Source: Escherichia phage vB_EcoM_DE15. Taken from it: a DNA stretch of 53,998 nt. A program made the position numbers and the translations under genes. The stretch lies in sequence record NC_079184.1. One strand, written 5' to 3'. Positions 12,275 through 12,774 of this stretch are shown piece after piece (position 1 is the first letter of the stretch; every line of letters begins with the position of its first letter). Below the pieces are notes generated by a model that saw nothing but the letters and a program-made list of their open reading frames with translations, made no database searches and was not told the origin of the DNA.

Positions 12275-12345
12275 TTCCAGGCGGGTTTCTTCGAAGTGCC
12301 AAGCGGGTTTTGTACTCGCATTGGCCTTCGGCTTTAGTCTGAAAC

Positions 12346-12361
12346 ATTAGTGGGATTTGAT
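12346..12361 (+). promoter_or_regulatory. Putative phage-RNAP promoter (ATTAGTGGGATTTGAT)
   Basis: 13/16 match to the consensus. Shares the upstream TCTGAAAC with the sites at 12487 and 14583. Confidence 0.45.
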
Positions 12362-12470
12362 TCTGACCACTTAGGGAAGAAAGGCATTATACACTTATCG
12401 CCAAATGGGTGTCAAGCACTTTCTTCATTTATTTTAATTTATTCTTATTATTCTTTTTGTTTGGAATATT
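12362..12470 (+). ncRNA. Candidate small RNA 1
   Basis: 8-bp stem GAAGAAAG (12376-12383)/CTTTCTTC (12419-12426), followed by about 40 nt of T-rich sequence. No ORF. Confidence 0.3.
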
Positions 12471-12486
12471 GGAATAATTCTGAAAC

Positions 12487-12502
12487 ATTAATTGGAATTG
12501 AA
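12487..12502 (+). promoter_or_regulatory. Putative phage-RNAP promoter (ATTAATTGGAATTGAA)
   Basis: Consensus family member. Confidence 0.5.
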
Positions 12503-12615
12503 TTAGTGTAATTCTGTCTGTACTCTTTTCCACTAGCAATTGTAGAGGAAGTCCACTGCAATAAGCGCAGCCTCAAACAACCAAGTCTGGACAACTTGGG
12601 AAGAGAGTACAGCAC
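12503..12615 (+). ncRNA. Candidate small RNA 2
   Basis: 13-14-bp closing stem 12518-12531/12599-12612 (1 G-U). It encloses the hairpins CCAAGT..ACTTGG and CTGC..GCAG. Confidence 0.35.
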
Positions 12616-12623
12616 AAAATCAC

Positions 12624-12639
12624 ATTAGTTTGAATTGAA
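12624..12639 (+). promoter_or_regulatory. Putative phage-RNAP promoter (ATTAGTTTGAATTGAA)
   Basis: Consensus family member, 12 nt upstream of the tRNA-like element. Confidence 0.5.
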
Positions 12640-12651
12640 ACAACATCAGAT

Positions 12652-12725
12652 AAGAGCTTTGTAACTAGGTAGTCCGTCTGGTACCAAGACGTGTGAGAAC
12701 GTTCGATTCGTTCTACAAAGCTCTT
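12652..12725 (+). ncRNA. tRNA-shaped element (candidate small RNA 3)
   Basis: 12-bp closing stem, canonical T-arm GAACG-TTCGATT-CGTTC, 5-nt variable region and a 5-bp arm with loop GGTACCA (no U33). The D-arm is reduced to about 11 nt. Confidence 0.45.
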
Positions 12726-12728
12726 TTC

Positions 12729-12765
12729 GATGGAATGTTTCCATCATATACATTTATCTTTTAAC
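12729..12765 (+). terminator. Hairpin GATGGA-ATGTT-TCCATC plus AT/T-rich tail
   Basis: 6-bp stem 12729-12734/12740-12745, followed by ATATACATTTATCTTTT. Confidence 0.4.
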
Positions 12766-12774
12766 ATAGGCCAA

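Follow-up and report, generated by a model that had tools for sequence, protein, structure and literature searches.

The window analysed here is the whole 53,998-nucleotide (nt) sequence of Escherichia phage vB_EcoM_DE15 (NC_079184.1), a phiEcoM-GJ1-like Carltongylesvirus genome of the Chaseviridae. At 12275-13273 it contains about 1 kb without a conserved open reading frame (ORF), and the 5′ part of this stretch is an array in which three copies of a predicted phage promoter (P1, P2 and P3) each precede a unit of folded sequence. A first-pass annotation had read the array as a mini operon of three small RNAs (sRNAs). We find that units 2 and 3 do form plus-strand RNA structures, but that the array is modular, not fixed, and that unit 1 is probably not an sRNA. 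With moderate confidence, we propose that the ~1 kb is a non-coding hub of promoter-headed cassettes encoding structured RNAs, in which unit 1 is a module acting at the level of DNA. About 45 phage records match the 3 kb around the array at 84.9-96.2% identity, including vB_EcoM_JL1, ST32, SA91KD, phiEcoM-GJ1 (GJ1), Mangalitsa, the Yersinia PYps phages and others; these relatives are mostly Chaseviridae of the Cleopatravirinae, and several are Carltongylesvirus. The array itself is made up as follows, in window coordinates.

12345-12361, plus strand: promoter P1, CATTAGTGGGATTTGAT, with TCTGAAA upstream; it faces a minus-strand host promoter and corresponds to 'putative phage promoter 4' of GJ1
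12376-12426, plus strand: unit 1 fold, with an outer 8-bp stem (12376-12383/12419-12426) and an inner hairpin (12391-12398/12405-12412)
12386-12415, minus strand: predicted sigma-70 promoter agreeing with the consensus at 12/12 positions, TTGACA at 12415-12410, an 18-bp spacer and TATAAT at 12391-12386
12427-12485, no strand: AT-rich tract of ~25% GC, ending in two tandem TTGGAATA repeats (12461-12476)
12486-12502, plus strand: promoter P2, CATTAATTGGAATTGAA, with the TCTGAAA extension; 'putative phage promoter 5' of GJ1
12503-12622, plus strand: unit 2 RNA, with a rod (12518-12531/12599-12612) and its extension (12515-12517/12614-12616)
12623-12639, plus strand: promoter P3, CATTAGTTTGAATTGAA, a duplicate promoter copy at the end of the unit 2 cassette, heading the constant slot
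12637-12742, plus strand: unit 3 with its full rod, in which the leader GAAACA.ACAUC (12637-12647) pairs with GAUG...UGUUUC (12729-12742)
12729-12745, plus strand: 17-mer GAUGGAAUGUUUCCAUC, the most conserved element of the region, which can fold on itself as a 7-bp hairpin or else supply the 3′ strand of the rod

The promoter motif CATTARTNNGAWTTGAW is conserved, 17 bp long and mostly intergenic, and it matches exactly at 12345, 12486 and 12623, so that the three copies described earlier as lying ~140 nt apart are indeed there, at spacings of 141 and 137 nt. When up to two mismatches are allowed the motif occurs seven times in the window, on the plus strand in 7/7 cases, compared with a mean of 1.46 occurrences in shuffled sequence, where seven or more were reached in 0/100 shuffles. 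In a position weight matrix built from the motif sites these seven score 25.7-28.0 bits, the minus strand reaches a maximum of 9 bits, and weaker plus-strand sites are found at 43080, 569 and 28290. The window also encodes a single-subunit RNA polymerase (RNAP; ORF 652-2592, PF00940, E 1.2e-18). Taken together, these data support a model in which the motif would behave as the strand-specific promoter of a phage that encodes its own single-subunit RNAP. In both respects, a 17-bp strand-specific motif and an encoded PF00940 polymerase, the system is like those of the T7/SP6/K11 type, and the 5′ half of the motif, ATTAGTTG, resembles the upstream half of the SP6 and K11 promoters, which read ATTTAGGTG and AATTAGGGC, respectively. 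That the family encodes a T7-type RNAP is also stated in its ICTV profile.

P1 and P2 are already known as predictions in the GenBank records of phiEcoM-GJ1 and SA91KD. All three sites are present in SA91KD, where two are annotated ('similar to promoter of phiEcoM-GJ1'), and the equivalent of P3 is annotated in none of the relatives examined. Unlike the predicted promoters of phiEcoM-GJ1, those described here number three within 280 bp, each at the head of a non-coding cassette. The heptamer TCTGAAA stands before the sites at 12345, 12486 and 14582 only, which are exactly the three sites that had been proposed as a promoter subclass; the shared extension is real as a pattern, but nothing marks these sites as a functional class.

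Comparison with the relatives shows which parts of the array are constant and which are optional. The P1 cassette and the last cassette, referred to here as the slot, are constant, while the number of promoters varies from 2 to 4 per phage and the optional cassette is an RNA, a 56-amino-acid (aa) ORF, both, or none. In GJ1, SKA49, TH37, PYps23T, MLP1, BSBP01, Bp10, 2KOFFS and TH24 the second promoter of two leads straight into the sequence that follows P3 in the window, and because these two-promoter relatives join directly, unit 2 together with one promoter copy can be defined as an insertion of 137 bp with the 17-bp promoter repeat at its borders. In Mangalitsa, TH29, PO103-1, Ecp_YSF, FXie and Pel53 an ORF of 56 aa with the pattern CxxC...CPxC replaces unit 2, PYps16N carries both cassettes (RNA and ORF) with four promoters, and one metagenome contig has a larger ORF at the position of the optional cassette. 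We infer that the cassette arose by recombination between promoter copies.

We also considered whether the rods could be the terminal inverted repeats of a miniature inverted-repeat transposable element. This was rejected, as the G·U intermediates and the T-loop described below point to selection at the level of RNA, and the insertion is bounded by the 17-bp promoter repeat and not by a short target duplication.

With regard to the ORF cassette, the 56-aa product is zinc-ribbon-like (cassette at L002:1994-2170 in Mangalitsa and L008:536-811 in PYps16N, and also in L036 and L006). The stop codon TAG of this ORF sits within the next promoter (CATTAG), and GATATTCGA is found upstream of the promoter that follows the ORF and likewise upstream of the window promoter at 2695.

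Structured RNAs of units 2 and 3

The folding of each unit was compared with dinucleotide-shuffled controls, a check proposed in the first-pass annotation, using 200 dinucleotide shuffles per test and two z values per unit. All three units fold better than the controls (z -2.9 to -4.3), with values of -2.94 and -3.44 for unit 1, -3.96 and -3.90 for unit 2, and -3.29 and -4.28 for unit 3. The concern that folding might be no better than in shuffled sequence thus does not hold, since all units lie at z -2.9 or lower.

The closing stem of unit 2 lies where it had been placed, with CTGTACTCTTTTCC (12518-12531) pairing to GGAAGAGAGTACAG (12599-12612). The rod, formed from these 14 bp and an extension of 3-7 bp, is ~17 bp long in the window and up to ~21 bp in relatives. 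Among six alignable variants both sides have changed in 9/21 pairs, a count of nine or more being seen in 1/500 shuffles, and 96.8% of cells pair compared with 24-41% in slid controls. The core hairpin of unit 2 (12582-12586/12594-12598; CCAAGU-CUGGACA-ACUUGG) is invariant, as are two complementary 5-mers, GUCCA at 12551-12555 and UGGAC at 12588-12592, the latter in the core loop. From this complementarity a GUCCA/UGGAC pseudoknot is plausible. A small hairpin in the same unit carries the palindrome CAATTG in its loop (12537-12542), which is GCAAUUGC in PYps16N. A core of the unit 2 type fills the constant slot in Aeromonas phage phiA050, and in IMG/VR the core pattern was found in Chaseviridae contigs only. 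The same pattern had no match in 185,579 bacterial and archaeal genomes, and the core is therefore not a host-gene mimic of a kind detectable by pattern.

Unit 3 had been described as a tRNA-shaped element at 12652-12725, and we confirm that it is found there, closed by a 12-bp stem. Around this core we recognise a rod of ~24 bp (6+4+2+12 bp). In the slot, every relative has the last promoter, the leader GAAACAACAUC, a cargo with its own stem and the 17-mer GAUGGAAUGUUUCCAUC, in that order. The pairing of the leader with GAUG...UGUUUC belongs to the minimum free energy structure in 15/15 slot variants and produces a rod of 20-30 bp despite unrelated cargo stems. In 11 sequences of the window type, 97.5% of cells pair compared with 39-44% in slid controls, and five pairs have changed on both sides; the acceptor-like helix and the anticodon-like stem contribute two each and the T stem one, where GAACG/CGUUC has become GAAUG/CAUUC. 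The leader helix changes from A-U to G·U and from C-G to U·G. Moreover, G·U intermediates are seen as AAGAGU/GCUCUU in PYps16N, AAUAGC/GUUAUU in TH24 and AAGAGC/GUUCUU in Bp10; on the other strand these would be A·C mismatches, which argues that the plus-strand RNA is the folded molecule. On this comparative evidence we regard units 2 and 3 as genuine structures of the plus-strand RNA, supported by covariation.

The 17-mer is unchanged across phages from those of E. coli to those of Erwinia, with a single A-to-G change in phiA050 and three uncultured contigs (L029 and L034 among them) that keeps the local hairpin by means of a G·U pair. The description of this hairpin (12729-12745) as terminator-like has to be given up, as it has no U run (its tail is AUAUACAUUUAUC) and was not reported by a simple intrinsic-terminator scan. 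Immediately downstream, at 12746-12765, the sequence reads CATTTATCTTTTAAC and holds ATCTTTT, one mismatch from ATCTGTT, the T7 class II pause and termination signal. A metagenome scan for the slot frame returned three contigs only, including the tRNA-bearing contig L034 considered below.

The arm order and arm sizes of unit 3 are those of a tRNA, with an acceptor-like helix, a mini D arm, an anticodon-like arm, a 5-nt variable region and a T arm. Three of these arms are located as follows.

12664-12673, plus strand: reduced D arm ACUAGGUAGU, 3 bp with a 4-nt loop that keeps GG; the D region measures 10-11 nt
12675-12691, plus strand: anticodon-like arm CGUCU-GGUACCA-AGACG, a 5-bp stem that covaries and a 7-nt loop with GGUACC
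12697-12713, plus strand: T arm GAACG-UUCGAUU-CGUUC, its 5-bp stem closed by G53-C61 and its loop of the UUCRANN form

Evidence for where this shape comes from is given by the slot of metagenome contig OGVR01001782 (L034), which has the same leader, rod and trailing hairpin and a cargo that scores 49.3 bits with the Rfam tRNA model RF00005 (gathering score 29) and is called by ARAGORN as a tRNA with an irregular anticodon loop. MAFFT aligns this tRNA with unit 3 through the leader, the acceptor strands and the start of the D arm, with the T arm misplaced, and the reduced D arm ACUAGGUAGU is homologous to the full D arm UAGCUCAAUAGGCAGAGCA of L034. The T arm core of L034, UUGGUUCGAAUCCAA, is also the T arm core of the phage tRNA at 16104-16200. 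T arms with G53-C61 and UUCRANN loops occur in six slot cargo types, that of the window and five more, and are found in the otherwise different slot folds of PYps23T/MLP1/flopper, of BSBP01 and of a 53.6-kb uncultivated virus genome. As judged from this homology, unit 3 is the descendant of a tRNA gene.

Thus, a tRNA-shaped element was a sound description as far as derivation is concerned, but unit 3 fails tRNA detectors. ARAGORN called nothing in the array region, its single call in the whole window being the tRNA at 16104, and nothing in the same region of eight relatives. RF00005 had no match in 12200-13350 even at E≤10. With the whole of Rfam, the window gave only the tRNA at 16104 at gathering thresholds, region 12200-13350 gave only chance matches at E≤10 (HSR-omega, mir-1814 and U4), and six relatives gave only the L034 tRNA at E≤1. 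Units 1-3, and the domains downstream of them, fit no known RNA family.

Compared with a tRNA, then, unit 3 is similar in its arm order, T stem and loop, 5-nt variable region, anticodon-like stem and true-tRNA homologue, and differs in its cut D arm, in a 12-bp acceptor helix that runs on into the 24-bp rod, in lacking CCA, and in a loop, GGUACCA, that is without U33 and has a palindrome in place of an anticodon. Other tRNA-like comparators are the mitochondrial tRNAs that lack a D arm and phage RNAs matured by RNase P, such as the C4 RNA of P1/P7. YrlA, a bacterial Y RNA-like molecule, likewise combines a long terminal stem with a tRNA-like module that has a T arm. However, the long stem of YrlA, which binds Ro, is found at the position of the anticodon stem, whereas that of unit 3 extends the acceptor stem and has no Rfam match.

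The palindrome in the anticodon-like loop is kept while its sequence changes. The hexamer is GGUACC(A) in the window type, CGGCCG or GCGGCCGC in the SA91KD/TH25 types, GGCGCC in 4HA13 and GUGCAC(A) in BSBP01, so that 4/4 are palindromes when the chance for a random hexamer is 1/64. Across the genome, 484 palindromic hexamers are seen where base composition predicts 877, and 64 where it predicts 286 when only G+C-rich ones are counted, which is consistent with restriction-site avoidance; GGTACC occurs once in the 54 kb of the window, in this loop (12680), and CGGCCG and GGCGCC are absent. Since a 2-nt loop cannot form, the loop hexamer is available for pairing between two molecules, and unit 3 could possibly dimerise in this way, although the palindromes may also have a role at the DNA level. 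A known case of this kind is the dimerisation initiation site (DIS) of HIV-1, a kissing loop with GCGCGC or GUGCAC in a 9-nt loop. The slot loops are like it in having a G+C-rich 6-nt palindrome in a loop of 7-9 nt, usually followed by a purine (GUGCAC-A in BSBP01), and in retaining the palindrome through sequence change. In contrast to HIV-1, the palindrome of unit 3 is at the anticodon position of a tRNA-like phage RNA, and its dimerisation is putative.

Unit 1 as a probable DNA-level module

The stem reported for unit 1, GAAGAAAG at 12376-12383 with CTTTCTTC at 12419-12426 followed by a T-rich tract, is present. In the outer stem there is no covariation, and TH26 carries one change that disrupts it. 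The inner hairpin coincides with the spacer of the minus-strand sigma-70 promoter, which has dyad symmetry, and the hairpin stem shows compensatory change between genera (CUUAU/AUGGG, GAAU/AUUC and GAU/AUC). This promoter is the sole site of at least 11/12 in the window when both strands are scanned, and its predicted leftward start near 12379 would converge on P1. Across 8 lineages, which include PYps23T, BSBP01, 4HA13, Faunus (Erwinia), phiA050 (Aeromonas) and two metagenome contigs, neither hexamer changes, while the spacer measures 17-18 bp and varies in sequence with the dyad kept. The host promoter faces P1 at ~40-60 bp in all relatives compared, and no conserved minus-strand ORF was found downstream of it. 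A consensus host promoter pointing backwards in this way appears to be undescribed before.

GC content is 25% at 12400-12499. The TTGGAATA repeats at the end of the AT-rich tract adjoin P2 and resemble the promoter core TTGGAATT, and GGAATA-type repeats are also found in the AT-rich tract upstream of the host promoter in 4HA13, Faunus, phiA050 and L034. The tract is a candidate DNA-unwinding element, or a candidate UP element of the minus-strand promoter. Because the fold of unit 1 largely coincides with the host promoter and the AT tract, the unit is better understood as a regulatory or origin-like module of the DNA than as an sRNA.

One possibility, tentative in our judgement, is that the module is primarily a replication origin like the primary origin of T7. 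The promoters would fire through the AT-rich element and the transcript would prime the leading strand, the host promoter and the TTGGAATA repeats would aid opening or priming the other way, and the RNA folds would be secondary; such a role is compatible with the explanation that we give for units 2 and 3. In line with this, the window has genes for a T7-gp4-like primase-helicase (19031-20794) and a family A DNA polymerase (20860-22794), three promoters are found within 280 bp around the 25%-GC tract, the GGAATA repeats cluster at this tract, and the tract, the head-on sigma-70 promoter and the flanking promoters are kept across genera. The native origin of T7 is made up of the promoters phi1.1A and phi1.1B in tandem, and promoters arranged in tandem are better at initiating replication in vitro (PMC12796468). 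The array resembles the T7 primary origin in having tandem phage promoters on the flanks of an AT-rich tract and in lying early to midway along a genome with a T7-like RNAP and T7-like replication genes, and as a candidate origin it is unlike it in that the AT tract lies between P1 and P2, a host promoter faces P1 and RNA cassettes are appended. However, GC skew rises monotonically without an inflection at the array, the number of promoters varies from 2 to 4, and an origin leaves the covarying helices, G·U intermediates, T arm and palindromic loops of units 2 and 3 unexplained. A literature search for a replication origin in this phage group found nothing.

Proposed working of the array

In the explanation that we favour, the hub of promoter-headed RNA cassettes, the phage RNAP would initiate at or just after each 17-bp motif, at ~12362, 12503 and 12640, and transcribe rightwards; by analogy with the SP6 and K11 promoters, the 17-bp block would span -17 to -1. 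Transcription from P1 would meet the consensus host promoter head-on and then the 60-bp AT-rich tract, and this part of the array would act in DNA-level control or be origin-like. Unit 2 would be an optional, compact RNA whose rod encloses an invariant core that probably forms a pseudoknot, and the rod of unit 3 would recruit the leader just downstream of P3 around the tRNA-derived core. We suggest that the long rods mask the 5′ end and act as sites for processing of the double-strand-specific (RNase III) type, and with 6+4+2+12 bp in unit 3, 14 plus 3-7 bp in unit 2 and 26 bp in a rod further downstream they have the ~20 bp of double strand that an RNase III substrate requires. Stable RNAs of ~75-105 nt would be set free in this way and the transcripts on either side trimmed; discrete RNAs of 100-130 nt, as envisaged in the first-pass annotation, are hypothetical. 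The cargoes may then act by tRNA mimicry (through the T-arm elbow), perhaps with dimerisation between loops, their target being a factor of the host or of a defence system. The ArdA-like gene nearby, together with the rapid turnover of cassettes between near-identical phages, hints that the role of the cargoes is accessory and possibly directed against defence.

The rods are like the RNase III sites of the T7 group in being imperfect double-stranded RNA of at least two helical turns, with internal loops, downstream of promoters or between transcription units; in T7, such sites reportedly lie downstream of promoters, as Dunn and Studier are said to have described in 1983. This likeness bears on a further possibility, that the folds are punctuation in cis of one long leader, acting as processing or stabilising hairpins of the RNase III or RNase P type, and that no trans-acting RNA is made. 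Rods of ~17-30 bp with internal loops close every module, there is no terminator between the units, and structure is continuous up to the ribosome-binding site (RBS) of the next gene at 13274, all of which would be expected of punctuation. The sites of T7 differ in being simple stem-loops, whereas the predicted rods here enclose multi-helix cargoes of 45-90 nt that are conserved or swapped. We hold the punctuation account, too, as no more than tentative. Punctuation needs no cargo, yet cargo is selected, as seen in the T arm of six types and in palindromes that are retained despite genome-wide avoidance; the unit 2 core does not vary between the phages of E. coli and Aeromonas, every module is headed by a strong promoter of its own, and an optional cassette such as unit 2 would not be needed.

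A number of observations weigh against the favoured explanation. The 2022 ICTV profile states that promoter sequences of the Chaseviridae 'have not yet been identified', and the promoters are accordingly bioinformatic predictions only. A terminator scan between the units found none, so that one long read-through leader is possible, and as the distance from P3 to the leader is 3 nt shorter in the window than in most relatives, an RNA initiated from it may lack the outermost helix. The unit 2 core and its pseudoknot are without covariation support because the core is invariant. Two cargo types of the slot, those of Faunus/Pel53 and phiA050, have no T arm, and tRNA mimicry is therefore not a universal function of the slot. 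Finally, RNase III cleavage and a decoy function are what we infer from shape alone, and literature searches for transcriptomics or non-coding RNAs in this phage group found nothing.

A bolder form of the cassette model is that the exchangeable cassettes encode an undescribed class of small RNAs that serve as decoys or sponges for tRNA-recognising factors, with the swapping of cargo reflecting an arms race. The region next to the ArdA-like gene would then be a hot spot of cassette exchange, and the RNAs, produced in large amounts by the phage RNAP, would be rod-closed and for the most part derived from tRNAs, with an intact T-arm elbow and a self-complementary kissing loop. The targets may be anticodon nucleases of anti-phage defence, or enzymes of tRNA processing or modification. 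We offer this as speculation and consider it rather unlikely.

Far less credible is the proposal that unit 3 is a decaying tRNA pseudogene and that units 1 and 2 are fortuitous hairpins in a spacer. Unit 3 does fail ARAGORN and the Rfam tRNA model at E≤10, the phage's own tRNA at 16104 is aberrant, and this phage group has both acquired and lost tRNA genes (PMC8762354). A paper on Yersinia phages describes a tRNA gene, without giving its position, that is present or absent among near-identical phages. However, decay is difficult to reconcile with changes in unit 3 that are compensatory or wobble-preserving and leave 97.5% of cells paired, with a structure kept where neighbouring proteins are 30-36% identical, or with z values of -2.9 or lower in 3/3 units and strong covariation in the unit 2 rod.

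It had also been stated that no ORFs lie between the promoters. Mechanical ORFs do exist in the array, at 12350-12511 (plus strand, 53 aa) and 12448-12615 (minus strand, 55 aa), but they are not conserved genes, since 1-nt indels occur in close relatives and the segment is lacking or replaced elsewhere. That the region encodes small proteins, such as that of the 53-aa ORF at 12350-12511, with incidental hairpins is the least probable reading of all, as these ORFs and the short coding sequences annotated in the BSBP01, Ecp_YSF and PYps16N records stand against frame-breaking 1-nt indels in close relatives, segments absent or replaced in sister phages, substitutions that track base pairing and not codons, and no annotated coding sequence here in GJ1, ST32 and SA91KD.

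The Chaseviridae are candidates for biocontrol and therapy, and ~1 kb of their genome is blank in annotation. This blank becomes a set of testable elements, consisting of a promoter consensus with predicted starts, a candidate origin with a head-on host promoter, and at least two RNA families supported by covariation, one of which shows a phage tRNA gene remodelled into a non-decoding form. The RNAs, an origin or the host promoter of this region are described nowhere in the papers that we searched or read, and the modular cassettes, the covarying RNAs and the remodelled tRNA with its palindromic loop appear not to have been described before. If the RNAs are stable and act in trans, they would add an RNA-based layer to the accessory, possibly anti-defence, functions of phages, and promoter-bounded cassettes would be a simple natural way to shuffle such functions between phages. 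RNAs that prove to be no more than processing signals would still be an example of T7-like transcript punctuation in a lineage of myoviruses.

Flanking regions and the phage tRNA

Three further features of the window lie outside the array, two of them in the same ORF-free stretch.

12292-12329, plus strand: G+C-rich hairpin closing the upstream operon, fold z -3.91 vs shuffles
12840-13250, plus strand: further conserved structured RNA domains in the same ORF-free region, up to the RBS and start codon at 13274
16104-16200, plus strand: phage tRNA, Rfam 45.2 bits, with a 20-23-nt insertion between U8A9 and the D stem

Upstream of the ~1-kb stretch are a weakly ArdA-like 'antirestriction' gene (11485-12042) and then an ORF of 79 aa (12035-12274). 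In SA91KD the counterpart of the 12292-12329 hairpin is annotated as a rho-independent terminator directly before promoter 1. The ArdA-like protein is 30-36% identical in Faunus, phiA050 and 4HA13, in which little or nothing has changed in the adjoining leader, the 17-nt hairpin and the sigma-70 hexamers; at the level of sequence, the non-coding frame is evidently more strongly constrained than the neighbouring genes. The end of the upstream operon (12275-12345) also contains direct repeats, TTCCAGGCGGGTTT and GTGCCAAGCGGGTTT, which are GTTCCAAGCGGG-like and lie partly within the terminator hairpin, and GTTCCAAGCGGG-like repeats are kept in 4HA13 and Faunus.

The downstream domains at 12840-13250 have a GC content of 52-55% and show patchy conservation that extends from E. 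coli phages to those of Erwinia and Aeromonas. They include D1, with a 12-bp stem (~12842-12914), and a 26-bp rod (~13023-13047/13122-13147). RNAalifold, run on 10-12 sequences from four or more genera, gave both-side changes in 19/34 and 20/37 pairs, and in folding the plus strand surpasses shuffled sequence (z -2.76) and the minus strand does not (z -0.90). A likeness of GAGGAAGUC...ACAGGGCUUA in this region to RNase P RNA was considered and rejected, as the RNase P models match nothing at E≤10. GJ1, TH37 and TH26 have an alternative first downstream domain, in GJ1 with an inserted ORF of 134 aa that is annotated 'SbcC'.

The insertion in the phage tRNA at 16104 is apparently a partial duplication of GCUCAG, and its anticodon loop reads UUCGACA. 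ARAGORN assigns this tRNA to Leu; in the literature its homologue in ST32 and GJ1 is given as Arg.

The aberrant tRNA lies in a second ORF-poor island, at 15015-16228, which contains further rods. Inverted repeats of this island pair 15114-15132 with 15177-15195 (19 nt, 89% complementary) and 15197-15211 with 15371-15385 (15 nt, 100%). The first island rod resembles the slot rod of 4HA13, which suggests that rod-closed modules exist elsewhere in the genome.

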